NCBI GenBank assembly: GCA_946188105.1
Contig: CAMHTQ010000004.1
Coordinates: 41,890-105,889, forward strand
DNA: 64,000 bases
Direction of reading: 5' to 3'
DNA from: an uncultured Alphaproteobacteria bacterium
Lineage (GTDB): Bacteria; Pseudomonadota; Alphaproteobacteria; Rs-D84
Numbering within the stretch: position 1 is the first letter of the stretch; every line of letters starts with the position of its first letter. The translations under genes were made by a program, and so were the position numbers. Below, piece after piece: positions 2 through 57,334 of this stretch. Under the pieces are notes generated by a model. The model was given only the letters and a program-made list of their open reading frames with translations. It made no database searches and had not been told where the DNA came from.

Positions 2-1834
2 TCTATTGACGAGGCCGTCGCTGGTTTCGCCAAAAAAATCACTGTAAATTTAATAAATTCTAAAACAATTGAAATTACCGATGACGGTCGTGGAATTCCT
101 GTGGACGAACACCCAAAATATCCGGGTAAATCCGCACTAGAGGTTATTTTAACCACTCTGCACTCTGGCGGTAAATTTAATAATAATGTTTATAAAACAT
201 CTGGTGGTTTGCATGGTGTGGGTTCTGCGGTTGTGAACGCACTGTCATCTGAAATGATTGTAACTGTATCGCGTGACGGATATGAATGGCACCAAACATT
301 TTCACGTGGCAAGGTAACATCCCCAATCGAACGTGGTGTGGCTACAAAAAATCATGGGACAAAAATCCGTTTCACATTAGATGACGAAATTTTTGGTGAA
401 AATGCTGTATTCAAACCAATTAAAATTTATCGTATGGCACGTGCAAAATCATTTTTATCACGTGGCATAAAAATCGATTGGATTTGCAATCCTCAAATTT
501 TGACCGAGGATATGAACATCCCGGCACAAACAACATTCTATTATCCAAACGGTGTGTCTGATTTCTTGGCTGAAAAAACAGATTCCAAACCACGTATTTT
601 GCCACGCATGTTTTCTGGCTCTTTAGATTTCCCAGATGATTCTGGTCGTGTTGAATGGGCATTGACATTTTTAACTGATGAAAATGGTGCGGCATCTGAC
701 GATGGATTTTTCGCATCATATTGTAATACCATTGCAACCGTTGACGGTGGCACACATGAAAGTGGATTTAAATCTGCAATCACACGTGGAATCAAGGCAT
801 ATGGTGAAAAAACAAATAACAAAGCGGCCGCCACAATCGTCAGTGATGACGTTTTCGATTCGGTTGCCGCAATTGTTTCTGTATTTTACAAAACACCACA
901 ATTCTTGGGTCAGACCAAGGAAAAATTATCCAACCCTGAAATTGCACGTTATGTTGAAAATGTTTTACGCGACCCATGGGAAATGTTTTTGGCATCTGAT
1001 CCAAAAACATCAAATGCGTTATTGTCATTCATAATCAATTTGGCAAACGCACGTATTAAAACAAAACAGGTCAAAGATATCGCACGCAAAACACCTACGA
1101 AAAGAATTCGTATGCCTGCAAAATTGGCTGACTGTTCCAAGCATGGTGTCGAAGGAACCGAGTTATTTATTGTCGAGGGGGAATCTGCTGGTGGAACCGC
1201 AAAACAGGCACGCGATCGTGCAACCCAGGCAATTATGCCCTTGCGTGGTAAAGTGTTAAACGTGTTATCAAATTCAGATGAACGTTTCAGTGCGAATCGT
1301 GAATTAAATGATTTGATTGATATTATTGGTGCGGGCACTGCAAAAGATTGGAACGAAGACAAACTGCGTTATGAAAAAATTATTGTCATGACCGATGCTG
1401 ACGTCGACGGCAGTCATATCGCATCATTACTGATGGCATTTTTCTATCAGTATATGCCACAATTGATTTATGGCGGACATTTGTATTTATCATGCCCACC
1501 ATTGTATAAATTCACATGTGGCACAGAATCGTTCTATGTTGATTCTGATGAAGAATTAGAAGAATTAAAGAACGACAAATACAAAAATAAAAAAGTAGAA
1601 ATCTCACGATTCAAAGGTTTGGGTGAAATGATGCCGAATCAGTTAAAAGAAACTACGATGTCACCCAAGACACGTCGTTTAATCAGGATTGAATTACCAC
1701 CAAAAACAGACGAAGGTGCCGAGGATACAGAAAAAACACGCACAATCGTAACCGAATTGATGGGTAAAAAGCCCGAGTTCCGTTTCAAGTTTATTACCGA
1801 ACACGCCCAATTCGTAAAAGATTTATTTGTGTAA
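2..1834 (+). CDS. parE: DNA topoisomerase IV subunit B (ParE). GyrB is possible but the length favours ParE. 5' partial: the frame is open to the window start.
   Basis: The frame is open from nt 2 (..SIDEAVAGF..IEITDDGRGIPVDEHP..), which is the GyrB/ParE ATPase N-terminal motif. TOPRIM motifs EGDSAGG-like (EGESAGG) and a DxD..D-like stretch are present, and the protein ends near 640 aa. Confidence 0.85.
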   Translation, partial: SIDEAVAGFAKKITVNLINSKTIEITDDGRGIPVDEHPKYPGKSALEVILTTLHSGGKFNNNVYKTSGGLHGVGSAVVNALSSEMIVTVSRDGYEWHQTFSRGKVTSPIERGVATKNHGTKIRFTLDDEIFGENAVFKPIKIYRMARAKSFLSRGIKIDWICNPQILTEDMNIPAQTTFYYPNGVSDFLAEKTDSKPRILPRMFSGSLDFPDDSGRVEWALTFLTDENGAASDDGFFASYCNTIATVDGGTHESGFKSAITRGIKAYGEKTNNKAAATIVSDDVFDSVAAIVSVFYKTPQFLGQTKEKLSNPEIARYVENVLRDPWEMFLASDPKTSNALLSFIINLANARIKTKQVKDIARKTPTKRIRMPAKLADCSKHGVEGTELFIVEGESAGGTAKQARDRATQAIMPLRGKVLNVLSNSDERFSANRELNDLIDIIGAGTAKDWNEDKLRYEKIIVMTDADVDGSHIASLLMAFFYQYMPQLIYGGHLYLSCPPLYKFTCGTESFYVDSDEELEELKNDKYKNKKVEISRFKGLGEMMPNQLKETTMSPKTRRLIRIELPPKTDEGAEDTEKTRTIVTELMGKKPEFRFKFITEHAQFVKDLFV

Positions 1835-4597: not shown

Positions 4598-5407
4598 TTA
4601 AAATGCACTTATTAAATTTTTATATTTATCTTCGTTGCATTCTTGTGCATTTGTATTTTCACAAAACTTTTTCAAATCAGCAACATCCGCAACAAAAGCA
4701 TCATATTCTGTTTTATCTTTTTCTTTCAATTCGTTTCCTTTGGCTTGGTACCATTCAACAGAATATTCAGCATATTGTTTTTGTCCTTGCAAACCGCCCA
4801 AACCATCGATATTAGACAATGCCTTGTTACCAAACCATTCCATTGCACCAACACCAATTCCGGCACCACCAACCGCACCCGCTATTGTTCCTAATGTACG
4901 TGCAGTTTTTTTAGCCTCTAAAATACGTTTTTTCATTTTATCTTTATCAACCCAACTGCCACAAGTAATTGCCTGACCCCACTCAAAATATTGTTTTTGA
5001 ATATCAGACACATTTATACGATTATCATCAGAACGCATTTCAACCAACACAAAACAAACATTATTTTCAGGATGTTCGACATCTTCGATCATCGAAGCAT
5101 AATTTGATGTATTACTATCTTTGGCAGCCCAAACAAATGTATTATTCATACCAATATTATTACTTAAACAAGCTGTTTTTTCTTTATCACGATTTACCAA
5201 TGTCGCAGTATCAGGATTATCATCAACCACCGCAACTTTCGCAGCACCAGTTTTATTTACACCACCAACATTGCTTCTGGCCGACGTTGCACCAACATGT
5301 GTTGCAACGACACCGACTCTGGCAGCACCAGAATTTCCCATACGACCAGCACAAAAAGCAGGAAAAACAAATAAAGATACCACGAAAAAAATGAAAACTC
5401 TCTTCAT
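4598..5407 (-). CDS. Secreted hypothetical protein with a glycine-zipper segment
   Basis: N-terminal signal peptide (MKRVFIFFVVSLFVFPAFCA). Glycine-zipper GTIAGAVGGAGIGVGA. I recognise no family. Confidence 0.5.
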   Translation of the reverse strand: MKRVFIFFVVSLFVFPAFCAGRMGNSGAARVGVVATHVGATSARSNVGGVNKTGAAKVAVVDDNPDTATLVNRDKEKTACLSNNIGMNNTFVWAAKDSNTSNYASMIEDVEHPENNVCFVLVEMRSDDNRINVSDIQKQYFEWGQAITCGSWVDKDKMKKRILEAKKTARTLGTIAGAVGGAGIGVGAMEWFGNKALSNIDGLGGLQGQKQYAEYSVEWYQAKGNELKEKDKTEYDAFVADVADLKKFCENTNAQECNEDKYKNLISAF

Positions 5408-5495
5408 AATAACTCCACTATTTCATGCCTTGCATTATATCACAAAACGGGATAAAAACCAAGAGAATTCATACTCACCCATTAAAACAAACGGG

Positions 5496-6083
5496 CTATT
5501 TTTTCCATTTCCATTCGATTTTTGATTCTGTTCCATTTAATAAACGAACTATATTATCTTTGTGTCTGATGCAACATAATACAGATATTGCCAAAAATGC
5601 CAAACCAATATTCCACGACATAACGAACCCAAATATGGGCAGCAAACAAAATACAACAACCGCCCCCAAAGAAGATTTTCCAGATGTCAATGCAACAATT
5701 AACCATTCAATTCCACATACAACAAATAAAATAGGATTAACTGCTAATAAAACACCAAACAAAGATGAAATCCCTTTGCCCCCATGGAATTTTAACCATA
5801 CAGGGAAACAATGTCCCACAATCGCAAAAAATCCACACCAAGCACCAAATCCAATGCCAGCAATCCAACATCCCAGATACACCGCGATAATGGCCTTTAA
5901 CATATCCAATATCCAAACAATACCAGCCATACGCAATCCACCGACACGCATAACATTAGTCGCACCAATATTTCCACTGCCGACTTTACGCAAATCACCA
6001 CGTCCCATTAACTTGGTAAAAATCAATCCCATAGGGACACTTCCAAGCATATATGCAACCAAAACGATAAAAAAGTACAACAT
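5496..6083 (-). CDS. plsY: Glycerol-3-phosphate acyltransferase PlsY
   Basis: Multi-TM protein carrying the PlsY signature GSGNIGATNV and ..HCFPVWLKFHGGKG.. Confidence 0.9.
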   Translation of the reverse strand: MLYFFIVLVAYMLGSVPMGLIFTKLMGRGDLRKVGSGNIGATNVMRVGGLRMAGIVWILDMLKAIIAVYLGCWIAGIGFGAWCGFFAIVGHCFPVWLKFHGGKGISSLFGVLLAVNPILFVVCGIEWLIVALTSGKSSLGAVVVFCLLPIFGFVMSWNIGLAFLAISVLCCIRHKDNIVRLLNGTESKIEWKWKK

Positions 6084-9859: not shown

Positions 9860-10705
9860 TTATTCTTCATTAGTAGAAATCACCAAAACCAAATTTCCTT
9901 TATAGAACTTTGCATATGGCACAGGTGTTGCGCGTCCAAAATTACGAACCAGCGCAGATGCAACATCGGTAAAGCGACCTTTGAACACGGCACTTGCCTC
10001 GATTGGATATTCACGGGATGTTGCCCAAACCAAATCCCAACCTTCTTTATCACACCAACTTTGCAAAACCTCGCGCAGGGTTTGACCGTTTGCAACAACC
10101 CAAGAACGCACTTGATCTGTGGCGCCCTTTGGTGCCTCGGCATCAGAATCAGATTTCACAGCAATTTCAGCCATATCTTTTTCTGAATCCATTTCCATAA
10201 ATGCGGCATCCATGGCACCATTACGTTTTGTGCAATTTTTACGACCACTGCGAGAAACAGCCAAAACATTACCGCCATCATCTTCTAAAACCTCGCGACG
10301 TAACAAAGGCATTTCAGCACCATTTTCGCATTCATCATCAAATCCCATTGGAATTTGATTACCGTGCAACATATTGGCACCACCCGTCCATCCAGTTCCA
10401 TCAAAATCAAAACTGTTATCAACAATCATATCATCCCCGATTTTAGAAACGATACGGATTGAATCCCCGTTATTGACCTTGTCTTTGTCATCACATTTTA
10501 CGGTAACATCGGCATCAGAGCCCGCGATTGGCCACGCAGGAACATTAGCATAAGCCGCAGTTTCCACAGTAACCTGATCCTTGTTCTCTACCTGGGTTTG
10601 TTTAGTAAAAACCTCAGAAGTTGTAACCTGGGGTAAATATTCGCCGGCAAAACAATAGCCAGCAGCCGTTGCAAACATTGCAAAAATCAAAAACTTACGA
10701 AACAT
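9860..10705 (-). CDS. Secreted secretin-associated protein with a C-terminal TcpQ/STN-like domain (a PilL/TcpQ-like partner)
   Basis: Signal peptide. The C-terminal ..GQTLREVLQSWCDKEGWDLVW...YPIEASAVFKGRFTDVASALVRNF.. matches the secretin-associated STN/TcpQ pattern. It sits 8 bp upstream of the secretin gene. Confidence 0.5.
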   Translation of the reverse strand: MFRKFLIFAMFATAAGYCFAGEYLPQVTTSEVFTKQTQVENKDQVTVETAAYANVPAWPIAGSDADVTVKCDDKDKVNNGDSIRIVSKIGDDMIVDNSFDFDGTGWTGGANMLHGNQIPMGFDDECENGAEMPLLRREVLEDDGGNVLAVSRSGRKNCTKRNGAMDAAFMEMDSEKDMAEIAVKSDSDAEAPKGATDQVRSWVVANGQTLREVLQSWCDKEGWDLVWATSREYPIEASAVFKGRFTDVASALVRNFGRATPVPYAKFYKGNLVLVISTNEE

Positions 10706-11416: not shown

Positions 11417-12742
11417 TTGAAACTAAATCCCAAACTCATTCGTGAAATATCCGCCACCCGCCAAGAACCAAAATGGTTAACTGATTGGCGTCTGGCCGCA
11501 TTTAACGAATGGAAAAAAATGAAAGAACCACATTGGGCTGAAATAGATTATGAACCAATTGATTATGATTCTTTTGATTATTACGCATCTCAAAAAGAAA
11601 TTGATAATTCTGAACTGGCTGACACATACAAAAAAATGGGGTTGCCAGAACCCGAACAACGTGCACTGCTGGGCATGGCAACTGACACCGTCATAGACAG
11701 CAAATCTGTTCACACATCATATACTGACGAATTATCAAAACTGGGAATTATATTTTTACCATTTTCCCAGGCGGTTATCCAATATCCCGATTTGGTAAAA
11801 AAATATCTGGGAACGGTTGTACCAACAAACGACAACTTTTTCGCTGCATTAAATTCTGCGGTATTTTCAGACGGAACATTTGTGTATATTCCGAAAAACA
11901 CAAAATGTCCTATTGATTTGGCCAGCTATTTCAGAATAGAAACTGCAAAAATAGGACAATTTGAACGCACACTGATTATCGCAGATTGCGGTTCCGAATT
12001 ACAATATATGGAGGGATGCAGTGCACCCCGTCGTCCAAATCACCAATTACACAGTGGGGTTGTTGAAATTGTTGTATTGGATAATGCACATGTAAAATAT
12101 TCAACTGTGCAAAATTGGTATGCTGGGAAAACATCTGGTGACAAATCTGTGGGTGGCATTTTAAACTTTGTAACCAAACGTGGAAAATGTGAAAATAATG
12201 CGACACTTGATTGGACACAAATTGAAATTGGTTCTGCAAAAACATGGAAATACCCATCTACAATTTTAGCCGGAAACAATGCACATAGCGACTTTTACTC
12301 ATTAACAATAACACGTGGCGTTCAACAATCAGACACCGGTACAAAAATGATACACATTGGCAATAATACTGTATCAAATATTTTGTCATACGGTATTGCA
12401 TTGGGTAAATCAAATCAAACATTTCGCAGTATGGTAAATTTCACCGGTAAAAATTGTATTAACAATTCAAAGTGCGACACAACAATAATCGGCAAAACCG
12501 CATCGGCAAATACAATACCAACAATCATACATACAAACGATACAAACAAACAATCGCACGAGGCAAAAACAGGTGCCATAGATTCTGCCACCCTATTCTT
12601 TTTAGAACAATCTGGAATTGACACCGACCAAGCAATTGCATTAATCATCGGCGCAACAGCAAATCCAATTATATCTAGATTACCGATGGAATTCTTGGTA
12701 GAATCGAAACAACTGATTCAAATGGCAATAAACAAGGAATAA
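11417..12742 (+). CDS. sufB: Fe-S cluster assembly protein SufB
   Basis: ..RQEPKWLTDWRL.AFNEW..MKEPHW.. N-terminal region and the ..KYSTVQNWY.. motif of SufB. Confidence 0.85.
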   Translation: MKLNPKLIREISATRQEPKWLTDWRLAAFNEWKKMKEPHWAEIDYEPIDYDSFDYYASQKEIDNSELADTYKKMGLPEPEQRALLGMATDTVIDSKSVHTSYTDELSKLGIIFLPFSQAVIQYPDLVKKYLGTVVPTNDNFFAALNSAVFSDGTFVYIPKNTKCPIDLASYFRIETAKIGQFERTLIIADCGSELQYMEGCSAPRRPNHQLHSGVVEIVVLDNAHVKYSTVQNWYAGKTSGDKSVGGILNFVTKRGKCENNATLDWTQIEIGSAKTWKYPSTILAGNNAHSDFYSLTITRGVQQSDTGTKMIHIGNNTVSNILSYGIALGKSNQTFRSMVNFTGKNCINNSKCDTTIIGKTASANTIPTIIHTNDTNKQSHEAKTGAIDSATLFFLEQSGIDTDQAIALIIGATANPIISRLPMEFLVESKQLIQMAINKE

Positions 12743-13422: not shown

Positions 13423-13469
13423 CAAAATCGTGCTATATGCATGAATACAAAGCACTAAGGAGAGAAACA

Positions 13470-14516
13470 ATGATGAACGGAATAATTGTTTTTACAGGAC
13501 TGGTCATACTGTTATGGTTTGGTCGTTCTATACTAATTCCATTATTAGTTGCAATATTTTTATGGTATTTAATAAATGCTATTGCTGCATATTTTCGTAA
13601 AATATTACCATTTAATTATTGTAAAAAAACATGCCCTGTATTTTGGCCTGGCTTTTTCAATGTAATATCTATATTACTTGCCACATCCAGTTTAACGTAT
13701 TTATTTTATGCATTTGCGACACAAATAAATCCTATGTTTTCAGAATTGGTTGGACGCATTCCAGAAATTCAAACCAAACTGATAAACATCAGTACCTATG
13801 CAATGCATCAACTAGGATTAACATTTGATATAAATATGTTCCCAGATTTGACCGACATTGTGAAAAAGGTTGGAACCTCCGCTGCTAACTTGGCAACGTC
13901 CCTGGGTATGATTTTGATATACATCTTATTCTTATTCGTAGAACAAAGTACATTCCATAAAAAGATGGATAATTTATTCGAGACAAAATCAAAAACTAAA
14001 AAATTCAAATTTATGTTGGACAGTTTCAACAAGAATATGAAAAAGTATCTGTTTGTTAAAACAGTTATCGCCGCTGCAACTGGAATCGGCGCATATATTT
14101 GGTTAAATATTATTGGATTAGAATTTGCTGGTGTATGGGCATTTTTGGTATTTATCATGAATTACATACCAACAATCGGTTCAATTGTCGCATGTGCATT
14201 ACCAATTCTATATGCATTGATTTCGGGTGATTCTTTGAATTTACCACTTTTGACAGCTGGCGGTTTAATTATTTTAGAAATCATATTTGGAAATATTTTA
14301 GATCCAAAATTAATGGGAAAAACATTAAACCTGTCAACATTAGCAATCTTAATAAACCTGGTATTCTGGGGATTATTGTGGGGAATCGCAGGTATGTTTT
14401 TCAGCGTACCAATTTTGGCGGCAATATTTATCATCACCGCACAATTTGATTCAACCCGTTGGATTGCAGTATTGCTTTCCGCTGATGGACAAATTCCAGA
14501 AAAAACCGAAGATTAA
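13470..14516 (+). CDS. AI-2E family transporter (PerM/UPF0118)
   Basis: Eight-TM profile ending in the ..FSVPILAAIFII.. C-terminal core. Start placed at the ATG after the GGAGAG RBS. The ORF track start at 13437 is the alternative. Confidence 0.7.
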   Translation: MMNGIIVFTGLVILLWFGRSILIPLLVAIFLWYLINAIAAYFRKILPFNYCKKTCPVFWPGFFNVISILLATSSLTYLFYAFATQINPMFSELVGRIPEIQTKLINISTYAMHQLGLTFDINMFPDLTDIVKKVGTSAANLATSLGMILIYILFLFVEQSTFHKKMDNLFETKSKTKKFKFMLDSFNKNMKKYLFVKTVIAAATGIGAYIWLNIIGLEFAGVWAFLVFIMNYIPTIGSIVACALPILYALISGDSLNLPLLTAGGLIILEIIFGNILDPKLMGKTLNLSTLAILINLVFWGLLWGIAGMFFSVPILAAIFIITAQFDSTRWIAVLLSADGQIPEKTED

Positions 14517-14535
14517 AAAATATTCTATATGCATT

Positions 14536-14563
14536 AAATCCGCCATTTTGGCGGATTTTTTAT
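14536..14563. terminator. Bidirectional rho-independent terminator
   Basis: Hairpin aaatccgcc-atttt-ggcggattt followed by a T-run, between convergent genes. Confidence 0.6.
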
Positions 14564-20042: not shown

Positions 20043-20477
20043 ATGTCTGACATTATTGTTTTTATATCGCCAAAATTCAAAGATTGCGATTTACAAAAAA
20101 TCGCAGAATCAATGCGTATACACAAAATAACAACAACCGACGATATACGCAATGCAACCGTCGTTTTAGAACCTGTATTATACGACACACAATCAGAACC
20201 AAAAAATACGTCGATTATAATTGCCACAGAACCAAACAAACCAACCGCAACATTGGCTGATATCGCCGAAAAAATTGTGGATGAAACTCGGGGGCAAATT
20301 TTTAAATTAAAGGAAAATTTAATGTCTGATATACCAGAGGTCATTGCTGCATCAATGGTATTGCCAAAGAAATCTCATCACCGTAAAAATATGTATCCAA
20401 AACAATCGTTATACAATTTCAAAAGTATAAACAACATACGTAACAACAGAATTTTTAACAGAACAAACCATAAATAG
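20043..20477 (+). CDS. Hypothetical protein
   Basis: 144-aa ORF immediately after gatB. I recognise no family. Confidence 0.35.
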   Translation: MSDIIVFISPKFKDCDLQKIAESMRIHKITTTDDIRNATVVLEPVLYDTQSEPKNTSIIIATEPNKPTATLADIAEKIVDETRGQIFKLKENLMSDIPEVIAASMVLPKKSHHRKNMYPKQSLYNFKSINNIRNNRIFNRTNHK

Positions 20478-20673: not shown

Positions 20674-21969
20674 ATGAAAAAATTCTATATAAAAACTTTT
20701 GGTTGCCAAATGAATGTATATGATGGACAACGCATCGCTGCGATGCTGGAACATCATGGTTTTATACAAACAGATAATGTTGCCGATGCTGACATAATTC
20801 TGTTAAACACATGTGCAGTGCGTGCCAAGGCAACCGACAAAGTTTATTCTGCATTGGGACGTATTCGTCTTGCAAAAAAGCCCGATGCAATATATGGAAT
20901 TATTGGATGCGTTGCTCGTGAATCTGGCAGTGATGCATTTAGAAAAATCAAAGATTTAAATTTCGTACTGGGGCCACAAAGTTATCATAAATTACCAGAA
21001 ATATTATCAGATCCAGATAATAAATTATTAGATATAAATTTGGGCGGTATTGAAAAATTTGATGAATTACCACCTATATCAACATCGCCTTTGGTTGCAT
21101 ATATTCCTGTCCAAGAAGGTTGTAATCATTGTTGCACATATTGCATTGTTCCATATACACGTGGACCTGAAATATCACGTCCATTTTCTGATATAATGGC
21201 GGAAACAATGCATGCAGCCGACATTGGTGCAATTGAAATTTGTTTCCTGGGACAAAATGTAAATGGATATAAATTTACCGATGAATCTGGAAAAACATAT
21301 AAATTATCCGATGTAATCCAAGAAACCGCAAAAATTGATTCGGTAAAACGTATCAGATTTACATCCAGTTACCCAACCGAAATGACAGATGATTTAATCA
21401 ATTTATTTGGTCACGAGAAAAAATTATTGCCATTTTTGAATATGCCAATTCAAAGTGGTTCTGATAATATTTTAAAGAAAATGAATCGTCAATATAACAT
21501 TGATGAATATATGGCACTTATCAACAAATTCAAAACCGTTTGCCCAGACATTCAAATATCCAGTGATTTCATTGTTGGATTTCCTGGGGAATCAAACGAA
21601 GATTTTGAACAAACATGCGATATTGCAAAACGCGTTGGTTACATAAATTCATATTCATTTAAATATTCGCCACGTCCACATACGGCTGCGGCAATTATGC
21701 AAAATCAGATTCCAGAAAATATAAAAAGCGAACGTCTGATAAAACTGGATAGCATACTAAACGACAGACAACGTGAATTTAATTTATTTTGTGTGGATAA
21801 AACATTTGATTGTCTGTACGAAGGCCCCGATAAAACAGGCACCCATCAAATTTACCGTACTCCATATATGCAGCCATGTATTGTGACGTCCAACACCCCC
21901 AGTCCAATGGCACGTATCAAAATTACATCAGCAAACAAATCATGCTTGCACGGTAAAATTATTGATTAA
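20674..21969 (+). CDS. miaB: tRNA-2-methylthio-N6-dimethylallyladenosine synthase (MiaB family radical SAM methylthiotransferase)
   Basis: MTTase N-terminus (FGCQMN), radical-SAM CxxxCxxC (CTYCIVPYTRG) and a TRAM C-terminus. Confidence 0.85.
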   Translation: MKKFYIKTFGCQMNVYDGQRIAAMLEHHGFIQTDNVADADIILLNTCAVRAKATDKVYSALGRIRLAKKPDAIYGIIGCVARESGSDAFRKIKDLNFVLGPQSYHKLPEILSDPDNKLLDINLGGIEKFDELPPISTSPLVAYIPVQEGCNHCCTYCIVPYTRGPEISRPFSDIMAETMHAADIGAIEICFLGQNVNGYKFTDESGKTYKLSDVIQETAKIDSVKRIRFTSSYPTEMTDDLINLFGHEKKLLPFLNMPIQSGSDNILKKMNRQYNIDEYMALINKFKTVCPDIQISSDFIVGFPGESNEDFEQTCDIAKRVGYINSYSFKYSPRPHTAAAIMQNQIPENIKSERLIKLDSILNDRQREFNLFCVDKTFDCLYEGPDKTGTHQIYRTPYMQPCIVTSNTPSPMARIKITSANKSCLHGKIID

Positions 21970-23444
21970 AATCCCAACTTTATATTCGCAGAAACTTTAC
22001 CAGAAACGCCAAAATCTGTATTCAATATTCCAACAGATACCGTTCCACCTATTTTATCAGGAACCGCCCATGCACCCAATCCAATACTGGCATCAAAATC
22101 ACCATGTGAATTTATACCTGTATGCAAAACATAATTATATTTAACACCATCCATAAAATAACCGAATCCAACATCTGTTCCTAAATTCACAAAAGAATAA
22201 TTTTCATGTATATCAACAACAGATTCCGAATCGATTCCATACCCTATAAATGGTGATAAATATAATCCAGATTCAAATCCAAACCTGGCACCAAAATCTA
22301 ACTTGCCATATACACCAAACGCATCTGGGTCATTTTTTGTTGTATTACCTTTGACAACACCATCACATTCAATATCTGAAAAACTGAAACCACCAACACC
22401 ACGCACAAATAACAACTCATCCACATCATAATTAAACCGCAGATTTCCGCCATATACACCAGATTTAAAATTACTCACATCATTTTTGAATTCGGATTTA
22501 ATCATATATGCACTAACACCAACAGACAACCGTCCATCAATTTTAGTTCCAGAATTTAATTTTACACCTGTACCCTGCAAACCCTTAGCATTGTAATATT
22601 CTGGCACCACAGATACAAAAAATTCATCTGAAAATTCATAAAAATCTAATATTTCATGTCTGTTCACAATCATCATTGGCCGTAATAACATATCCGGATT
22701 TTTCTGCACAGAATATTTCAAAACCTTTTGTGCATGCAGTGCACTCTGGCGTGCAGCCAAATAAGAATCTGAATATCTTCTCTTTACGCAAACCCCTATT
22801 CCGTCCGAACAGGTTGCCCAATAATAATCATAATTACCAGATTCTGCTTCTTCACGAACATTAATTCCCATATAGTGTTCTATATTATCAAATCTTAATA
22901 TCTCATCAGAATTTATTGACACAGAATTCAAAAAATTATCTGTCAGTTTTATCTGGGTATTACTTTCCTTGATAATATGCCCTGTAAACCGACCATCAAA
23001 TCCCGTATCCGCAACCAATACTAAACCGGGGACAGAACCACCACCATACAGGTCAAAATTTATATCTATACTATTTGCATTTTGTGAAATCGTATCCAGA
23101 TCCGCCAACAAATAATCGCCACCATTATTTATCAAAATATCTAATGAAACATTTGTCCCAATCGGTATTAAATTCATTTGTGTTGGATTGCTGATTATTT
23201 GTAAAACTTTTGAACCAACGGCATTACCCGTAATATTATTTGATATGGTATTATTATTTGTGATTCTTAATGTACCACTATCAATTATTAAATTATCAGA
23301 TATAACACCATTATTTACCAAATAATCCCCATCATGAAACAAGAATCCACTTGGCAAACTTGTATCGGTATAATCTGTTGCAAAACAACATACCGGCCAC
23401 ACCAAGTTCAACATCAAACCAAAAGCTATCCTTGTTCTTTTCAT
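21966..23444 (-). CDS. Autotransporter outer-membrane protein
   Basis: Signal peptide from the internal Met (MKRTRIAFGLMLNLVWPVCCFA). The ORF track start at 23492 is the alternative. N/G/I-rich beta-helix-like passenger and a C-terminal beta-barrel ending ..IKLGF. Confidence 0.65.
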   Translation of the reverse strand: MKRTRIAFGLMLNLVWPVCCFATDYTDTSLPSGFLFHDGDYLVNNGVISDNLIIDSGTLRITNNNTISNNITGNAVGSKVLQIISNPTQMNLIPIGTNVSLDILINNGGDYLLADLDTISQNANSIDINFDLYGGGSVPGLVLVADTGFDGRFTGHIIKESNTQIKLTDNFLNSVSINSDEILRFDNIEHYMGINVREEAESGNYDYYWATCSDGIGVCVKRRYSDSYLAARQSALHAQKVLKYSVQKNPDMLLRPMMIVNRHEILDFYEFSDEFFVSVVPEYYNAKGLQGTGVKLNSGTKIDGRLSVGVSAYMIKSEFKNDVSNFKSGVYGGNLRFNYDVDELLFVRGVGGFSFSDIECDGVVKGNTTKNDPDAFGVYGKLDFGARFGFESGLYLSPFIGYGIDSESVVDIHENYSFVNLGTDVGFGYFMDGVKYNYVLHTGINSHGDFDASIGLGAWAVPDKIGGTVSVGILNTDFGVSGKVSANIKLGF

Positions 23445-23591
23445 ACCGAATATGGTAATAAACCGCACACAAAAATAAAAGAAAAAATTCACATTTTCCT
23501 AGGCATCCATACCTGTATAAAATCCGTCCCAGTTTTGATACCATATCAGTATCGGCACAAAGATAAACAAAAACTCAAAAAGGAGAAAAAA

Positions 23592-24200
23592 ATGAAAAAA
23601 CTTGCTATTTCTACACTTGCTGTATTAATTGCATGCCCTGCATTTGCAGGGAACCCTCGTGATGGCAGTTCCTGGCAAATTTGGGGATTGGATCCATACG
23701 TTGCATTACGTGGCGGTATTGCTTCATCAAACTTGAACTACAAGTTCCTGGGTCACAAAGAAACCATATCTGACGCAACACTCCAAGGTCGTGCAGCTAT
23801 GGGTTTACAAATGAACAAATGTTACCGTACTGAATTAGAATGGTCTATATACAGCAAGGCCAAAGATACATCCAGTTTCGGTTTAGCGAATGACATCAAA
23901 GTCGAAAGCAAAATGCAAACATTATTGATGAATGCATTTATGAACATCGGTTCATACAGCACGGTTCGTCCATTTTTGGGTGTTGGTGCCGGTGTCGGAT
24001 TCTCTGACGTTAAACGTTCCGGTGCAACAATTGAATCACATACCCAAAACAAAGCTGGATTTTCAGCCACAGGTATTATGGGTATGACATTCGATATGGA
24101 TCAATTTGCCGTCGATGTTGCAACCAGATACACCTATGTTGATGTTCATTCTGGAATGCATAACTTTGGTGCAGATGTTGGCATCAGATTTATGTTCTAA
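23592..24200 (+). CDS. Outer-membrane beta-barrel protein (OmpW/OMP_b-brl-like)
   Basis: AGGAG RBS, signal peptide, alternating amphipathic beta strands and a C-terminal aromatic (..GIRFMF). Confidence 0.65.
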   Translation: MKKLAISTLAVLIACPAFAGNPRDGSSWQIWGLDPYVALRGGIASSNLNYKFLGHKETISDATLQGRAAMGLQMNKCYRTELEWSIYSKAKDTSSFGLANDIKVESKMQTLLMNAFMNIGSYSTVRPFLGVGAGVGFSDVKRSGATIESHTQNKAGFSATGIMGMTFDMDQFAVDVATRYTYVDVHSGMHNFGADVGIRFMF

Positions 24201-24230
24201 ACATTACACATTAAACAAAAGCATACCACA

Positions 24231-24256
24231 AAAACCCCGTATAAACGGGGTTTTTA
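24231..24256 (+). terminator. Rho-independent terminator
   Basis: Hairpin ccccgt-ataa-acgggg followed by a T-run. Confidence 0.6.
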
Positions 24257-24274: not shown

Positions 24275-24628
24275 TTATAATCTTGCTAATGCTAATTTAT
24301 TCAGTAACCCAGATTCAATATCGGTTAATAAAGATACCATACCTTGATTAACCTCTTCGTCTGCGACAACTCTTTCAATATATTCTATCAACTGCAAACA
24401 TTTTTTAACTATATCCAACTCAACAAATTTTGGATTTAAAATATTTGCCTTAAAAACACTTTTATCCCCTGTTGCCATAAAATGCCGTTCTGCAATTTTA
24501 TCAATCCAATCATCTATATCTTCCTCTAATCTATCAAACAGCAAATGACGAGAATAATCATCCGTAGACCAATGATTTATTTTACATGAATATTTTAAAG
24601 CAATTAAATGTTGTAATAATTCATACAT
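24275..24628 (-). CDS. Short ferritin-like / Dps-like protein
   Basis: ..KINHWSTDDYSRHLLFDRLEEDIDDWIDKIAERHF..G.. parallels the Dps helix A/B ferroxidase region (HW...H..F..EE...D.IAER). It is only 117 aa. Confidence 0.45.
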   Translation of the reverse strand: MYELLQHLIALKYSCKINHWSTDDYSRHLLFDRLEEDIDDWIDKIAERHFMATGDKSVFKANILNPKFVELDIVKKCLQLIEYIERVVADEEVNQGMVSLLTDIESGLLNKLALARL

Positions 24629-24811
24629 AATTTGACTCCTTTTGTTGTATGCATAAAAACAATAGTCGTTTCACACACACAAACCAACAAGATATTATTC
24701 TTTGTATATGCATAAAATCAGGCATTTTTTAGGCAATCATACTTAGCGAATTAAAAAATTTTTCATATACAATAAATATGCGTTTCATATAAAAACAAAA
24801 GGAGAAATAAT

Positions 24812-25324
24812 ATGAAAAACATCATTAAAATAATATCTGCATTGGCTGTCATTGCAACCGTATCAGGATGCACAACCACAACCGAATGTGACCAACACAA
24901 AAAATATCACGACAAAAATTACCAAGAAATGTCTCATAACAACCACAAAAAACACAGAAACAAATTACATTCTAAAATGTACACACGTAACAACCAAGGT
25001 AACGCCACAGAAATCGGTTATGTTAAATTTTATGATGTGGCCGACGGTGTAAAAATGGTTGTCAATGTTGATAAACTGCGTAACGATATAGATTACACAA
25101 CAAAAATTTATCAATGCACAGATGCCAAATGCATGAATCCTGATACATGTTGTATGGAAACAACAATGTCTTTGGAAATGCCTTTAACACGTAAAGATAA
25201 AAAGAATCCAATGTTGCAAGAAACATTCTTTATCCAAAACGTCAACACCAATCAATTACAAGGCGCGACCGTTTTCTTTGAACGTGGCAATGGATATCGT
25301 GCTGCATGGGGATTTTTGGATTAA
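24812..25324 (+). CDS. Lipoprotein, possibly a degenerate Cu,Zn-superoxide-dismutase-like domain protein
   Basis: Lipobox TVSGC and a His-rich stretch. ..KIYQCTDAKC.. and a C-terminal ..ERGNGYRAAWGFL resemble the SodC GFHIHENGSC and ..GGRLACGVI motifs, but most copper-ligand His are missing. Confidence 0.45.
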   Translation: MKNIIKIISALAVIATVSGCTTTTECDQHKKYHDKNYQEMSHNNHKKHRNKLHSKMYTRNNQGNATEIGYVKFYDVADGVKMVVNVDKLRNDIDYTTKIYQCTDAKCMNPDTCCMETTMSLEMPLTRKDKKNPMLQETFFIQNVNTNQLQGATVFFERGNGYRAAWGFLD

Positions 25325-25341
25325 AACAACCATCAAAAAAA

Positions 25342-25367
25342 CAGTCGCAAATTGCGACTGTTTTTTT
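25342..25367. terminator. Bidirectional rho-independent terminator
   Basis: A-run, hairpin cagtcgc-aaatt-gcgactg, then T7. Confidence 0.6.
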
Positions 25368-25369
25368 AT

Positions 25370-25669
25370 TTACGAATTCATATAAAACATAACATGTTTT
25401 CCCTTACTTTTTGCATATTCTAATTCCTCTCTGGTACTATCACCTATATAACCATCAATATTTGCAATAAACACAGCATCCGACATATCTATCCTTTTCA
25501 AATGTGCCCGTTTAAAATTTTCTATTGTATGCGCATCAACTCTTCTATTTGATACAGACCAAACAGGTGTTAAAACACACCACCCATCAACAGCTAAATT
25601 CTCTGCAATTTCCATCAGTTGTTTTTGATATTTTAAACTACCACACAATGTTATAATTTTCATTAGCAT
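25370..25669 (-). CDS. Nucleoside 2-deoxyribosyltransferase-like small Rossmann protein
   Basis: ..IITLCGSL.. start and ..SDAVFIANIDGYIGDSTREELEYAKSKGKHV.. match the NDT-like (PF05014-type) pattern. Confidence 0.4.
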   Translation of the reverse strand: MLMKIITLCGSLKYQKQLMEIAENLAVDGWCVLTPVWSVSNRRVDAHTIENFKRAHLKRIDMSDAVFIANIDGYIGDSTREELEYAKSKGKHVMFYMNS

Positions 25670-25672
25670 CCA

Positions 25673-28303
25673 TTACCTTGTAATCATCTTTCTTATCAAA
25701 TCAAGCGGTATGACTAAAAACGCCAACCCAAACAATACGCCCCATTGTTCATAAGACAATGGAACAACTTGGAACAAACTGCCACCAAAATTGACTATAC
25801 ATACCGTTCCTATAATAATTCCAAACGCAATCATCAAAAACATTGGATTTTTATCTATTTTGTACAATAACTTTAAATTATCCACACGCACATTAAATCC
25901 ATTAAATGCAGCAATCAGCATAATCAAAGCAAATCGAACAGTTAAATTAACCTCTGTACTGGTGCCAAATATATCCTTTACAGCCGGCACAAATAACAAC
26001 CCAAAAATAATTCCAAATTCGATACAGCCAGCAATTATTCTTGTCGACACACCGCCAGAAAACAATGATGCACCCTTTTTTTGTGGTGGAACTTGCATAT
26101 ATTCCTGATTTGCAGGTTCGCCACCAAAAGATAAAGAATTCAAACTATCCATCACTATATTAATAACCAAAATTTGAACGGCGACAAATGCAGGTACCGC
26201 AAAAGCAATCGGATAAAACAAACTGAACACAACCAACATTAAATTTATCGGCATTTGAAACATTAAAAATTTAGTTATGTTATGAGAAAACGTTCTGCCA
26301 AACAACACCGCATCCGCCAATGATACAAAGTTATCATCAGTAATAATTATATCGCCTACTTCTTTACAAACATCTGTACCACTGCCCATAGCAAACCCCA
26401 CATCCGCACGTTTTAATGCGGGTGCATCATTTGTTCCATCGCCACACATACCAATACATAAATTCATTTCTTGGGCGACCTTTACCAATCTTAATTTAGT
26501 TCTGGGAACTGCACGAGCAATCACCTTTATCTTGTACAATTTCTTTTTTATTTCTGCATCCGTCATCGCGTCTATTTCTTTGGCCGTCAAAATAATATCA
26601 TCCCTGTCCGAGATAATACCAGTTTCAACACCTATTGCGCGTGCCGTATCCATAATATCCCCTGTCATCATAATAACGTGAATACCGGCCTTTTTCATAC
26701 GTGCAACCGCCCCCGGCACTTCGCGTCTGATATCATCACGAATACTGACCAGTGACACCAATGTTAAATTATCTGGCATTTTGTTATTCAAAGTTTTTTG
26801 CACACCGTATGCCAAACCAACCAAACGTTTTGCCTGTTTTGCATTTTCACGTATAATTTCCATAATCTTAGATTTATTTATCTTGTGCGACACACCATTT
26901 ACATCAATATATTTGGTAATATGCTCTAACAAAACTTCAGGCGCCCCAGTATACAAAACGAATTGTTTTTCATCTGCCTTTCTGACCACACGCACCGCAG
27001 AAAATTTATTTGCACTATCAAATGGGATTTTATCCAAAACCTTTATTTCTCTGACCACACTGCGTACCAATTTGGATTTTGGATTCAATGCCGACAACAA
27101 CGCACGTTGTGTACTGGTTCCGCCTATAATCTTGCCAGATTCATCAAATGCCGCCCCCGTATTAAACAATATATCCGCAGCAATAAACCGCGCGACAGGT
27201 AAATCCGAATCAAATCCAACCTGACTGCCATCCCCCAAATAATTTGTAATAGGAATTAAATTTCCATATGTCAAAGTTCCCGTTTTATCAGTACATAAAA
27301 TTTGAATATTTCCCGCCTCGGGAATCTTGTGAGTATTTTTAGCCAACACATTATGCTTTATCATATTACGCGCATTCTGGGATATAATAATTGTAATGAT
27401 AAATGGCAAACCTTCGGGAACTGCTGCGACAACAATCGTCAAAGAAACAATCATTATCATCAAAATTTGATGTAATACATTACCTATGCCATTTGATAAA
27501 AACATATGTAATCCACCCGCATCCAACACAGCATTGGCAAGTAATACTATCGCAACAATGGTTCCACCGATATATCCAAACCAACCTATTTTGGTCGCCA
27601 GATTATCTAATTTCAGATCTAAATCAGTTTTAACCTCGTCTATATTTCTAACCGCCAACAAAGTTTTTGCACTTTCTGTGGTTACACCTATTTTTTCAAC
27701 CTTCATATAACATTCGCCACTTTGGACGGTGGTTCCACAAAACAACAAATTCTTACTTACATAATCTTCGCCAGTAAATTTCTTATCACGATTATATTTA
27801 AACCCCGATACAGGTTCTTTGACGCATTCCTCACTTTCGCCATTTAACACAGAATTATTTACGGTTATACGTCCATCCATAATATAACCATCCGCAGGTA
27901 CCGTTTCCCCAGATTGCAAGAAAATAACATCCCCGACAACAACATCTTGGGTTTTTATATGTTTAATTTTGTTATTACGCAGGACCATCACGAATCGAAT
28001 TGCGGTCCTGTTTTTCAAATCCATGGAATATTTTTGTGCTTTTAATTTAGTTACTGTTCCAATAGCCCCAACACACAGCAAAACCAGTCCTATACCGACC
28101 GCTTCGATATATCCACCAAAACCCAATATGGCCAGGACCAAGAAAAACACCAACATCAACAATAAAATCAGGTTAATTTTGTCCTGGAAAATTTCTAAAA
28201 AGAACTGCCATGCTGATTTCCGTTTAACCCCAGGAATAACATTTTTTCCAAATAATTTGATACTTTTCTTTACCTGCTGAGATGTCAAACCCACAATTTT
28301 CAT
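25673..28303 (-). CDS. P-type cation-transporting ATPase (P2-type, Ca2+/Mg2+-like)
   Basis: Phosphorylation motif CTDKTGTLT, hinge GDGTNDAPAL, TGES-like actuator, about ten TM helices, 876 aa. Confidence 0.85.
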   Translation of the reverse strand: MKIVGLTSQQVKKSIKLFGKNVIPGVKRKSAWQFFLEIFQDKINLILLLMLVFFLVLAILGFGGYIEAVGIGLVLLCVGAIGTVTKLKAQKYSMDLKNRTAIRFVMVLRNNKIKHIKTQDVVVGDVIFLQSGETVPADGYIMDGRITVNNSVLNGESEECVKEPVSGFKYNRDKKFTGEDYVSKNLLFCGTTVQSGECYMKVEKIGVTTESAKTLLAVRNIDEVKTDLDLKLDNLATKIGWFGYIGGTIVAIVLLANAVLDAGGLHMFLSNGIGNVLHQILMIMIVSLTIVVAAVPEGLPFIITIIISQNARNMIKHNVLAKNTHKIPEAGNIQILCTDKTGTLTYGNLIPITNYLGDGSQVGFDSDLPVARFIAADILFNTGAAFDESGKIIGGTSTQRALLSALNPKSKLVRSVVREIKVLDKIPFDSANKFSAVRVVRKADEKQFVLYTGAPEVLLEHITKYIDVNGVSHKINKSKIMEIIRENAKQAKRLVGLAYGVQKTLNNKMPDNLTLVSLVSIRDDIRREVPGAVARMKKAGIHVIMMTGDIMDTARAIGVETGIISDRDDIILTAKEIDAMTDAEIKKKLYKIKVIARAVPRTKLRLVKVAQEMNLCIGMCGDGTNDAPALKRADVGFAMGSGTDVCKEVGDIIITDDNFVSLADAVLFGRTFSHNITKFLMFQMPINLMLVVFSLFYPIAFAVPAFVAVQILVINIVMDSLNSLSFGGEPANQEYMQVPPQKKGASLFSGGVSTRIIAGCIEFGIIFGLLFVPAVKDIFGTSTEVNLTVRFALIMLIAAFNGFNVRVDNLKLLYKIDKNPMFLMIAFGIIIGTVCIVNFGGSLFQVVPLSYEQWGVLFGLAFLVIPLDLIRKMITR

Positions 28304-28671: not shown

Positions 28672-30249
28672 TTATTCTCCACACTCTAAACACTCTTCAT
28701 CCAAATCGTCAAAACCGGCGCCCTCTTCGGTTACCATGGCCACTGGAACCATTTTACCTGGTTCTGTATAATGTGTTTCTTTTACGACCCGAACACGACG
28801 ATTTTCGGCATTTGGCACACCATCAGCCGTTTTAACCTTTAAATCTTCCTCACCAGCAGAAACCGCAACGATTTGGCTTGCAGGGATACCATATTGTATC
28901 AACATTTTCTGCACTGCCTCGGCACGACGACCACCCAAAGCATAGTTATAACTGTTTGTGCCAGCTGTATCTGTATGACCAATCACAGAAACCTTGATAT
29001 TCTTGTTTTCCTGTGTTGCTGTTGCCAATTCACGAATTAAACCTGCATATTCTGGCTTAATAACCGCCTTGTTAAAGTCAAAGTGGACTTCGAATATTTC
29101 TTCCATAACATGCTGTGTTGGTTCCAAAGGAATCTGTTGAACCTTGATAACCGCCTTTTCTTCATTTGGTTTCAAAGCATCCAAACGGTCATTTATCGCC
29201 TTGATTTCGGCACGCATAGCCATCATCATATTGATAAATTCATCACGAGAAACCCCTTCTTCACCCAATGTTGGGATTTCTTCTTCACAAGGACATGCCT
29301 CTGGTTGATCTTGTCCTTCGACCTGAACCAACATTGGACGACCTGTTTGACAATCACATCTGGATCCGCCGCCATTTACAGCAACGGTATTTCCACTGTT
29401 TGAAACACTCTTGTCACCACCATAAATATTCTGATTGAAAATCATTGGTACAGGTTGTCCCATACGTGTTGTAACAAATCCTTGGGTTGTTGTAGTTTTA
29501 ACATCACCACCCTTTTCTTGTTGATATGCCTGTTCAACAGGGATTGTTTGAACCAAATTACCTGGAACACTCACGTTATTAACAATCACGATACCATCAC
29601 GTGGATATGATGTTCCGCCAACGGTTTTCAAAGAACGTGTATCTGGATAAAATCCGCCCGATTTTTCAATTTCAATAGATGCAGGTGCCGCAGATTTCTT
29701 TGCAACCTTGCAACCACCTTTTTTGCAATTACGCAACACATCCATAGCGGTTATGAAACGATCACGGCATTGCATTGCTGTTTCTTGTTGTCCCGTAGAT
29801 GTAGCAGACAACCAACAATCAAACTTTGCCTGTGCCTCGGCTGCAACATCAGGACGAGTTTCCGTAGCATCATTTTTGAATTCTTCGATCATATCAAAAT
29901 ATGCCATTTCCAGTTCGGCAGCCTCAGACTCATCATCCACAGCCCAATTACCAACGGTTTCTGGGAATGGTGTTTCACCAGAAAATGCGGTTACAGCCTT
30001 GCCTGCGAACAATTCACCCATTTCTGGGTATCCAGATGTTCTAGCATTATAAATTGCATAAGAACGATAATTCATTGCCAACTGATTCAAGAAAGAATCT
30101 TTATGTGGTGCAGAATAAACATCCAATTTTTCAACATAGTCAACTGTTGGTGTTGACATGTCCATATCACCACGATTTGAACCAGCGCAAGCCCCCAATG
30201 CAATCACCGAGGTTATCGCTAAAATATGTGAAAATAATCTGTTTTTCAT
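28672..30249 (-). CDS. OmpA-family peptidoglycan-binding lipoprotein
   Basis: Lipobox LGAC. C-terminal OmpA_C domain (..VIGHTDTAGTNSYNYALGGRRAEAV..). Confidence 0.75.
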   Translation of the reverse strand: MKNRLFSHILAITSVIALGACAGSNRGDMDMSTPTVDYVEKLDVYSAPHKDSFLNQLAMNYRSYAIYNARTSGYPEMGELFAGKAVTAFSGETPFPETVGNWAVDDESEAAELEMAYFDMIEEFKNDATETRPDVAAEAQAKFDCWLSATSTGQQETAMQCRDRFITAMDVLRNCKKGGCKVAKKSAAPASIEIEKSGGFYPDTRSLKTVGGTSYPRDGIVIVNNVSVPGNLVQTIPVEQAYQQEKGGDVKTTTTQGFVTTRMGQPVPMIFNQNIYGGDKSVSNSGNTVAVNGGGSRCDCQTGRPMLVQVEGQDQPEACPCEEEIPTLGEEGVSRDEFINMMMAMRAEIKAINDRLDALKPNEEKAVIKVQQIPLEPTQHVMEEIFEVHFDFNKAVIKPEYAGLIRELATATQENKNIKVSVIGHTDTAGTNSYNYALGGRRAEAVQKMLIQYGIPASQIVAVSAGEEDLKVKTADGVPNAENRRVRVVKETHYTEPGKMVPVAMVTEEGAGFDDLDEECLECGE

Positions 30250-57299: not shown

Positions 57300-57334
57300 T
57301 CCGTCACCTCTATATGCATTGTTTCTGCGTTTTT

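Follow-up and report, generated by a model that had tools for sequence, protein, structure and literature searches.

The divergent gene pair described here, open reading frames (ORFs) A and B, lies in a 64,000-nucleotide stretch of DNA (the window) from an uncultured, Candidatus Enterousia-like alphaproteobacterium of the order Rs-D84 (GenBank assembly GCA_946188105.1, contig CAMHTQ010000004.1, positions 41,890 to 105,889 of the forward strand). The window contains ~37% G+C and exhibits a GC skew that is negative nearly throughout. Members of Rs-D84 have genomes of less than ~1 Mb, are fermentative, and lack both a respiratory chain and most biosynthetic pathways (PMC12306168). In window coordinates, which are used throughout, ORF A occupies positions 24275-24628 on the minus strand and ORF B occupies positions 24812-25324 on the plus strand; a 183-bp spacer (24629-24811) separates the two. 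The original prediction, made from the sequence alone, described these genes as degenerate relatives of the mini-ferritin Dps and of Cu,Zn superoxide dismutase that share a duplicated palindromic operator. ORF A (117 amino acids), ORF B (170 amino acids), the spacer, and both copies of the motif were found exactly where that prediction had placed them. The reading that we prefer differs in several respects and has, in our estimate, a probability of about 0.55. It holds that two independent, divergent genes flank a back-to-back promoter region of ~180 bp in an arrangement kept throughout Candidatus Enterousia, that ORF A encodes a compact Dps-type mini-ferritin, that ORF B encodes a pseudoenzyme lipoprotein derived from superoxide dismutase (SOD), and that the second copy of the motif is a general site. 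Orthologues were extracted from the 80 best related loci among species representatives in GTDB. All 80 are metagenome-assembled genomes of Alphaproteobacteria from the gut or rumen; many bear the name Candidatus Enterousia, and together they form a single genus-level clade. The two genes and the predicted parts of their products are:

24275-24628, minus strand: mini-Dps gene (ORF A), 117 amino acids, predicted to be cytoplasmic, Pfam DUF5856; assigned from Pfam, PHROG, the AlphaFold2 (AF2) model, fold search, and conservation.
24812-24871, plus strand: signal peptide and lipobox V17-S18-G19-C20 of ORF B, MKNIIKIISALAVIATVSG-C20; the lipobox is kept in 80/80 orthologues.
24872-24961, plus strand: predicted disordered Cys/His/Lys-rich tether of ORF B, residues 21-50; AF2 predicted local distance difference test score (pLDDT) < 50.
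24962-25324, plus strand: predicted SOD-fold β-barrel of ORF B without metal ligands, residues 51-170 plus the stop codon; assigned from AF2, fold search, and profiles.

ORF A, which contains the sequence KINHWSTDDYSRHLLFDRLEEDIDDWIDKIAERHF, matches the Pfam family DUF5856 (PF19174) with a score of 38.8 bits, above the gathering threshold of 34.6; residues 19-106 align with profile positions 1-85 of 94. PF19174 is present in 120/120 homologues of ORF A among the matches listed, and ORF A also matches phrog_858 at 1.8e-10. The AF2 model, obtained with 43 homologues, has a pLDDT of 95.6 and a predicted TM-score (pTM) of 0.89 and consists of four helices (residues 2-21, 25-51, 73-89, and 95-115). 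When this model was compared with the PDB using Foldseek, the 40 best matches were all Dps-family chains with a TMq of 0.5-0.79, at E-values of only 0.02-0.3. H19, W20, H28, D32, D43, and E47 are invariant in the 43 homologues. Three weak alignments, including those with the Dps proteins of A. tumefaciens and E. coli, place these residues on the ferroxidase residues of Dps, which we take to be H51, W52, H63, D67, D78, and E82 in the E. coli protein. ORF A keeps the 4/11/4 ligand spacing of Dps, while its A-B connection is three residues shorter.

The DUF5856 match and the uniform list of best PDB matches bear out the Dps-like fold that had been predicted for ORF A. Its description as degenerate is contradicted by the invariance of every ferroxidase residue. 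Because the five ferroxidase ligands and the tryptophan are all invariant, ORF A is compact rather than degenerate; judged from the alignments and the predicted model, it is a member of a separate compact Dps-type family with a presumably intact ferroxidase site and not a degenerate or truncated Dps. C15 in helix A and C77 in helix C are also invariant in 43/43 aligned homologues, which is unusual for Dps; the two cysteines may act as a redox-sensitive pair or provide an additional metal site.

It is unlikely, in our view, that ORF A is instead a small, helical protein of phage origin that binds DNA or acts in regulation, with no role in iron oxidation. This idea draws on the label of the best PHROG match, "starvation-inducible transcriptional regulator", and on the closest viral structural neighbors of ORF A, which are phage proteins of 115-130 amino acids, some annotated as DpsA or as DNA-binding protein. 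However, these labels derive from the name Dps and not from experiments. ORF A is acidic (isoelectric point of 5.0) and lacks both a signal peptide and a basic tail, and its invariant residues are exactly the ferroxidase set. Phage origin was rejected on two grounds: a tblastn comparison of ORF A with 50,697 phage records returned zero matches, and the gene resides in conserved chromosomal synteny rather than in a prophage.

ORF B begins with a signal peptide that ends in the lipobox VSGC, with Cys20 as the lipobox cysteine (pattern applied: [LVI][ASTVI][GAS]C). Residues 1-46 are predicted to be disordered, whereas residues 51-170 form eight strands in the AF2 model with block-mean pLDDT values of 75-94, mostly ~90. 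ORF B matched no curated Pfam or NCBIfam family, and no match to Sod_Cu (PF00080) was obtained at E ≤ 1. In the fold search of the PDB, all 50 chains among the matches listed are CuZnSODs, the SOD-like protein of B. subtilis, or CCS, the copper chaperone for SOD, including its domain 2; 27 matches have E ≤ 1e-3, the best being 9e-5, and the TM-score is ~0.5 when normalized over the full length of the protein, including its disordered third. Family profiles, built from the orthologues extracted from the 80 loci, led in the same direction. Against the PDB, the profile gave weak CuZnSOD matches (7b4o, E 0.04), and an exhaustive hidden Markov model (HMM) search of 1.84 billion representatives identified only 59 clusters of the family. 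In the tail of the family HMM search (E 1.8e-5) appeared P0340, a Sod_Cu protein (63.5 bits), which hhalign aligned to the family profile with a probability of 96.8% and an E-value of 2.5e-10. In addition, 8/37 family members match Sod_Cu at E ≤ 0.1. The homology of ORF B to Sod_Cu is thus visible only through structure and through family profiles or intermediates, and the SodC-like fold of the original prediction is confirmed by both routes. In one family representative, the 412-amino acid protein P0286, the SOD-fold domain (residues 304-412) is fused to a large, uncharacterized N-terminal part.

ORF B contains the motifs KIYQCTDAKC (residues 98-107) and GNGYRAAWGFL (residues 159-169), which the original prediction had likened to those of SodC. 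K98 and Y100 align with the two copper-binding histidines of FHIH, and C107 aligns with the SOD loop cysteine. R163 occupies the position of the active-site arginine, the invariant W166 that of the C-terminal disulfide cysteine (GYRAAWG versus G.R.ACG), and either F156 or E157 that of the last copper-binding histidine. The zinc and electrostatic loops are cut to a few residues, and what corresponds to the zinc loop is a short, cysteine-containing loop without histidine. As predicted originally, the copper-ligand histidines are replaced, and neither the orthologue nor the family alignment contains a conserved histidine in the domain. Within Enterousia, Cys102, Cys107, Cys113, Cys114, Met82, Met119, Met123, and Glu157 are conserved. 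In the family as a whole, invariance is limited to G69, P124, and G167, and structural residues are almost invariant. Three loci (L012, L024, and L074) lack both C107 and C113, and the whole cysteine loop is deleted in distant relatives. Because of this pattern, the four cysteines are read as two probable structural disulfides, C102-C114 and C107-C113, rather than as ligands. All copper and zinc ligands and the C-terminal disulfide cysteine are replaced and both active-site loops are shortened; because of these changes, ORF B is, as far as alignment and model can tell, an SOD-derived lipoprotein without a metal site and not a dismutase. The claim that both proteins are catalytically altered therefore holds for ORF B and fails for ORF A, with its complete ferroxidase set.

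The SOD fold and the Enterousia-conserved cysteines, methionines, and Glu157 might be taken to indicate an active, unusual dismutase that employs other ligands (Cys, Met, Tyr, and Glu). We regard this as highly improbable. The cysteine loop is variable or deleted, and the loss of C107 and C113 as a pair points to disulfides. The only family-wide invariants are the three positions named above, with structural residues almost invariant, and the loops of the active-site channel are truncated. Moreover, YojM of B. subtilis, a CuZnSOD-like protein with a disrupted copper site in which only two copper ligands are missing, is already inactive (PMC10432803).

The tether that connects the barrel of ORF B to its lipid anchor varies in composition. 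Measured from the lipobox cysteine to an AKMYT motif, it contains a mean of 4.4 histidines and 2.5 cysteines in the nearest clade. Among 69 distal Enterousia tethers, 55 contain Cys-Pro and 50 contain His-His. The tethers of 20 relatives outside the genus are mostly serine-rich, and 18 of these 20 have no tether cysteine.

The ORF A-ORF B arrangement is highly conserved. In 79/80 loci, the DUF5856 gene is preceded by the divergently oriented lipoprotein gene and followed by a convergent gene for a porin-like outer-membrane protein (OMP); the single exception to the pairing is a truncated contig. Across Enterousia species, the mini-Dps shares 56-94% identity and the lipoprotein 28-69%. The spacer between the two genes was examined in an alignment of the 80 orthologous spacers and, in the window, contains the following features:

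24636-24639, minus strand: ribosome-binding site (RBS) of the mini-Dps gene, GGAG, read from the sequence; CTCCTTT is conserved in all orthologous spacers.
24645-24658, plus strand: motif copy 1, TTGTATGCATAAAA, a tract in which pyrimidines and purines alternate, immediately upstream of the mini-Dps RBS and within the leader or at its beginning.
24660-24692, minus strand: putative mini-Dps core promoter, with the -10-like sequence CTATTG (24660-24665, reverse complement) and the -35-region sequence TCTTGT / TCCTRT (24687-24692, reverse complement).
24702-24717, plus strand: motif copy 2, TTGTATATGCATAAAA, extended to the 20-mer GTATATGCATAAAATCAGGC at 24704-24723.
24730-24745, plus strand: upstream box TAGGCAATCATACTTA, consensus TAGGGAWTCAAACCTR, with the highest conservation of any spacer block, 23-24 nt upstream of the -10-like hexamer.
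24768-24773, plus strand: -10-like hexamer TACAAT of the putative lipoprotein promoter, conserved as TAnAAT.
24800-24804, plus strand: RBS of the lipoprotein gene, AGGAG, from the sequence and the spacer alignment.

Read in the direction from the mini-Dps gene to the lipoprotein gene, the conserved blocks of the spacer are the mini-Dps RBS, ATATCA, AYAGGA, GCTATACGCATnnAATCYGG, TAGGGAWTCAAACCTR, TAnAAT, GTAACCA, and the lipoprotein RBS. The spacing of the ATATCA and AYAGGA blocks suggests that they are the -10 and -35 elements of the mini-Dps promoter. The two putative transcription starts would then lie ~130 bp apart. Copy 2 would fall at about -50 to -75 relative to both, and copy 1 would sit where the mini-Dps leader begins. 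The block GCTATACGCATnnAATCYGG corresponds to copy 2, which is thereby conserved genus-wide and is a member of a dispersed motif family. Copy 1 is recognizable only in the ~10 closest species (L001-L008, L014, and L026), where it reads TAT(R)(Y)(R)(Y)AT-AAAA and varies by transitions that preserve the alternation.

Two other possible functions of the spacer were considered and rejected. A riboswitch or leader RNA would be expected to leave a trace in Rfam or in a consensus structure. Rfam matched nothing in the spacer either at gathering thresholds or at E ≤ 1, and RNAalifold on 79 leaders yielded no consensus structure; the only dyad with compatible changes (TAGG/CCTR) comprises 4 bp, which is too short for a hairpin. 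Mini-ORFs starting from the ATG inside the motif were dismissed because the orthologues have ACG at this position and the frames are not conserved.

Could the duplicated motif be a shared operator through which a metal- or oxidative-stress-responsive repressor or activator coregulates both genes, as the original prediction proposed? Dps genes are classically controlled by OxyR, PerR, or Fur. The gapped pattern common to the two near-identical copies has only 2 sites in 64 kb versus 0.01 expected from dinucleotide-preserving shuffles, copy 2 is genus-wide and central between the putative promoters, and copy 1 coincides with the putative start of the mini-Dps transcript. The conservation of the motif points the other way. 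The palindrome TATGCATA, which is contained in both copies, is not enriched on its own (3 in the window versus 2.3 expected) and occurs in only ~5 orthologous spacers (10 strand-wise matches); the orthologue consensus at this position, CTATACGCAT, is not palindromic, and copy 1 is confined to the closest species. Extension of copy 2 revealed a motif that recurs far from the spacer: CTATAYGCATNRWWTCYGSS has 13 matches in the window at ≤ 3 mismatches versus 0.69 expected, mostly inside or antisense to genes, and CTATAYGCA has 7 matches versus 0.61 expected, all on the plus strand. Within the window, the exact gapped pattern is restricted to the spacer, and the extended motif is dispersed over 13 sites:

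785-804(-), 10450-10469, 12269-12288(-), 14208-14227, 14525-14544, 20102-20121(-), 21198-21217(-), 24704-24723, 29639-29658, 50698-50717, 52464-52483, 55375-55394, and 57310-57329, minus strand where marked (-): dispersed 20-26-nt motif CTATAYGCAT-GAWWTC-YGGG/CGCC-ATTTTT.

In 684 kb of Enterousia DNA, the dispersed motif has 123 matches: 38 lie in this spacer, 22 lie between genes elsewhere, 59 run antisense to long ORFs, and only 6 are in the sense orientation. Most of the antisense matches represent one conserved site in a MiaB-like gene. The extended motif is missing upstream of a distant lipoprotein homologue in locus L086. When we compared it by eye, which is not a formal test, with what we take to be the consensus sites of IHF, Fur, PerR, OxyR, Irr, RirA, and NsrR, none fit convincingly. 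A sigma-54 promoter, which the reverse complement of the 20-mer calls to mind (TGGC-N8-TGCA in three window copies), was rejected inasmuch as the essential GG is missing in most copies and in the orthologous spacers. Housekeeping promoters are a doubtful explanation for all copies, most of which lie inside or antisense to genes. The motif may represent a promoter or antisense promoter, a site for a global factor, or an uptake-signal-like sequence. Because copy 2 belongs to this genome-wide 20-26-nt motif, it would be a site of general use, associated with promoters or bound by a global factor, and not an operator private to this pair. The findings give no support to a dedicated operator for metal or oxidative stress, and we consider coregulation through such an element doubtful. 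The site at 14525 runs into a terminator hairpin. An ORF listed from 13437 more likely begins at an ATG at ~13473, behind AAGGAGAG (region 13433-13480). A CTATATGCAT motif is found ~40 nt upstream; only this copy and the one at 24704 are placed as in a classical promoter.

The upstream box at 24730-24745 bears on a different question, namely whether the two genes are functionally linked at all. This box, AGGGAWTCAWACCT / (C)CTAGGSAWYCAWACCTR (TAGG...CCT), also precedes the OMP gene (window positions 23498-23515), at equal spacing to a -10-like hexamer. This OMP-upstream box is present in 39 loci (L010-L056, at about 5100-5730 (-)). The box is likewise kept upstream of the distant lipoprotein homologue in L086, where the neighbor is a tRNA gene and no Dps gene is found. 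Because the TAGG...CCT box recurs at the OMP gene and stays with the lipoprotein gene in L086, it probably marks a promoter type of the lipoprotein and OMP genes and not a shared Dps operator, and envelope-protein genes may have this promoter type or an activator site in common. An explanation that we hold to be nearly as likely as the preferred one follows the same line: the two genes are functionally unrelated, the lipoprotein forms part of an envelope set with the OMP through the shared upstream box, and the mini-Dps gene is adjacent by frozen gene order in a small clade. The position of AGGGAWTCAWACCT 23-24 nt upstream of the -10-like hexamer at both envelope genes, its retention in L086, the distant lipoprotein homologues that have no DUF5856 neighbor, and the origin of all 80 loci from one genus-level clade all speak for this explanation. 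Two observations speak against it: the pair persists in 79/80 species despite divergence of the lipoprotein to 28-37% identity and despite changes in its other neighbors, and conservation extends to several blocks of the spacer at either promoter.

The preferred reading, in which a compact mini-ferritin and an SOD-derived lipoprotein are expressed from divergent promoters, suggests the following mechanism. ORF A would fold into a four-helix bundle and assemble such that H19, H28, and D32 of one subunit, together with D43 and E47 of its neighbor, bind two ferrous ions, with Trp20 adjacent. Hydrogen peroxide would oxidize the bound iron and thereby limit Fenton chemistry, which is the most likely role of the protein; ORF A has no lysine-rich DNA-binding tail. 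Such iron oxidation could be useful to an oxygen-sensitive fermenter that faces host-derived oxidants. The barrel of ORF B probably descends from Cu,Zn superoxide dismutase, having lost the copper and zinc ligands, the zinc loop, the electrostatic loop, and one half of the C-terminal disulfide. Because of these losses, the domain is predicted to be a noncatalytic SOD-fold module (pseudoenzyme) that serves as an envelope-tethered scaffold, and the Cys/His-rich tether found in Enterousia may bind metal ions.

Several points weigh against this reading. The sequence matches of ORF A to Dps models are far under family cut-offs: Pfam Ferritin (PF00210) gave no match at E ≤ 1, the NCBIfam Dps model matched weakly over residues 5-51 (E 6e-4; 19.8 bits versus a cut-off of 114), and neither the PDB profile search (E 0.52) nor hhalign (E 0.1) produced a significant match to Dps. 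First-alignment PDB sequence searches were nonsignificant for either protein. The original prediction had named the lack of significant Dps and Sod_Cu profile hits as evidence against itself; this is what single-sequence searches returned, and homology emerged through structure and family profiles. The shorter helices of the ORF A model leave a dodecameric shell, and with it the intersubunit site, not assured. A full-text literature search found no paper that mentions DUF5856 and no experimental data for the family. Metal binding by the tether of ORF B is an idea suggested by composition only, and the Cys/His richness is missing outside the genus. The promoters on both sides of the spacer are putative, placed from sequence. 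Finally, no DUF5856 gene occurs in the neighborhoods of four distant lipoprotein homologues, and because these homologues are not beside a DUF5856 gene, the functional link between ORF A and ORF B may reflect only inherited gene order.

Other genes surround the pair. It is flanked by an autotransporter-like ORF of 508 amino acids (21966-23492, minus strand) and by the porin/opacity-like OMP gene (23592-24200, plus strand), the product of which matches Pfam Opacity with 21.9 bits. The OMP ORF is listed from 23334, which is too far upstream; its signal peptide begins at M87 (coordinate 23592), behind AAGGAG. On the other side, a 99-amino acid ORF (25370-25669, minus strand), with matches to DUF4406 and nucleoside 2-deoxyribosyltransferase just below threshold, lies between the lipoprotein gene and a P-type ATPase gene. 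It has no counterpart in any of the 80 loci, the nearest clade having the ATPase gene directly after the lipoprotein gene, and it looks like a strain-specific insertion. The ATPase (25673-28303, minus strand; 876 amino acids), which adjoins the lipoprotein gene only in the nearest clade, contains DKTGTLT and PEGLP motifs. From these motifs we take it to be a P2-type (Ca2+/Mg2+-like) pump and not one of the heavy-metal P1B type, so that a copper/zinc theme gains no support from it. Two terminator-like hairpins bound the pair:

24230-24255, both strands: bidirectional terminator-like hairpin, AAAAACCCCG-TATAAA-CGGGGTTTTT, located where the OMP and mini-Dps genes converge; read from the sequence and not listed by a simple terminator scan.
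25334-25368, no strand assigned: terminator-like hairpin 3' of the lipoprotein gene, with 16 pairs, a loop of 3, and T and A runs on both sides.

If the predictions hold, they have several consequences. DUF5856, a family common in phages and without a published function, would gain a testable assignment as a compact Dps with a complete ferroxidase site, and its size would define that of a minimal mini-ferritin subunit. The ORF B family, which corresponds to no Pfam family, indicates that the Cu,Zn-SOD barrel can be conserved though stripped of ligands, loops, and disulfide, and would extend a list of pseudoenzymes that includes YojM and domain 2 of CCS. That every species sampled retains both genes, in a lineage devoid of respiration and of most biosynthesis, suggests that they are important for life in the gut. 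The "operator" in the spacer is of less consequence and is more aptly regarded as a single case of a dispersed, unexplained motif. A bolder and rather speculative proposal is that the pair constitutes a minimal envelope and cytoplasm defense module in nonrespiring gut symbionts with genomes below 1 Mb. The smallest known Dps-type ferroxidase (117 amino acids, with a complete site) would then act in the cytoplasm and an SOD pseudoenzyme with a metal-capturing tether outside. Expression of both would depend on one central element, which would belong to an undescribed, genome-wide 26-nt motif recognized by a global factor. We think this improbable as a whole.

Comparison with known systems places both proteins at the edge of familiar families. 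ORF A resembles the Dps proteins of E. coli, Listeria innocua, and A. tumefaciens and B. subtilis MrgA in its predicted four-helix bundle, in the pattern HW...H...D...(11)...D...E on helices A and B, and in its acidic, presumably cytoplasmic nature. It differs from them in length (117 versus about 150-170 amino acids), in the absence of N- and C-terminal tails, in the shorter helices A, C, and D, and in reaching no Ferritin or Dps threshold. With DUF5856 (PF19174) and PHROG 858, ORF A shares membership above the curated threshold and the size class of 115-130-amino acid phage proteins. The family has no described function; here its member is encoded by a conserved chromosomal gene of a genome-reduced gut alphaproteobacterium and has a fixed divergent partner.

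For ORF B, a close parallel is YojM (PDB 1S4I, 1XTL, and 1XTM), an inactive SOD-like protein that is found among its fold matches. YojM is lipid-anchored. It lacks only two copper ligands and is still recognized by Sod_Cu, whereas ORF B has lost all ligands, both loops, and the disulfide partner and is silent in Pfam. Domain 2 of CCS/Lys7 (PDB 1EJ8, 1QUP, and 1JK9) similarly provides an SOD-fold scaffold without catalytic copper, accompanied by separate cysteine-containing metal-binding segments. CCS is, however, a eukaryotic, cytosolic protein that docks onto SOD1; the Cys/His segment of ORF B is an N-terminal lipoprotein tether, and there is no evidence for a SodC partner. Reduction has gone further in ORF B than in YojM or in domain 2 of CCS. 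The SodC proteins of Haemophilus and Actinobacillus, which have a histidine-rich N terminus, and the lipidated SodC of M. tuberculosis resemble ORF B in their envelope location, SOD barrel, and extension or anchor. The chains 2APS, 1Z9P, and 1PZS appear among the fold matches of ORF B. These SodC proteins, in contrast to ORF B, are active enzymes with intact copper sites.

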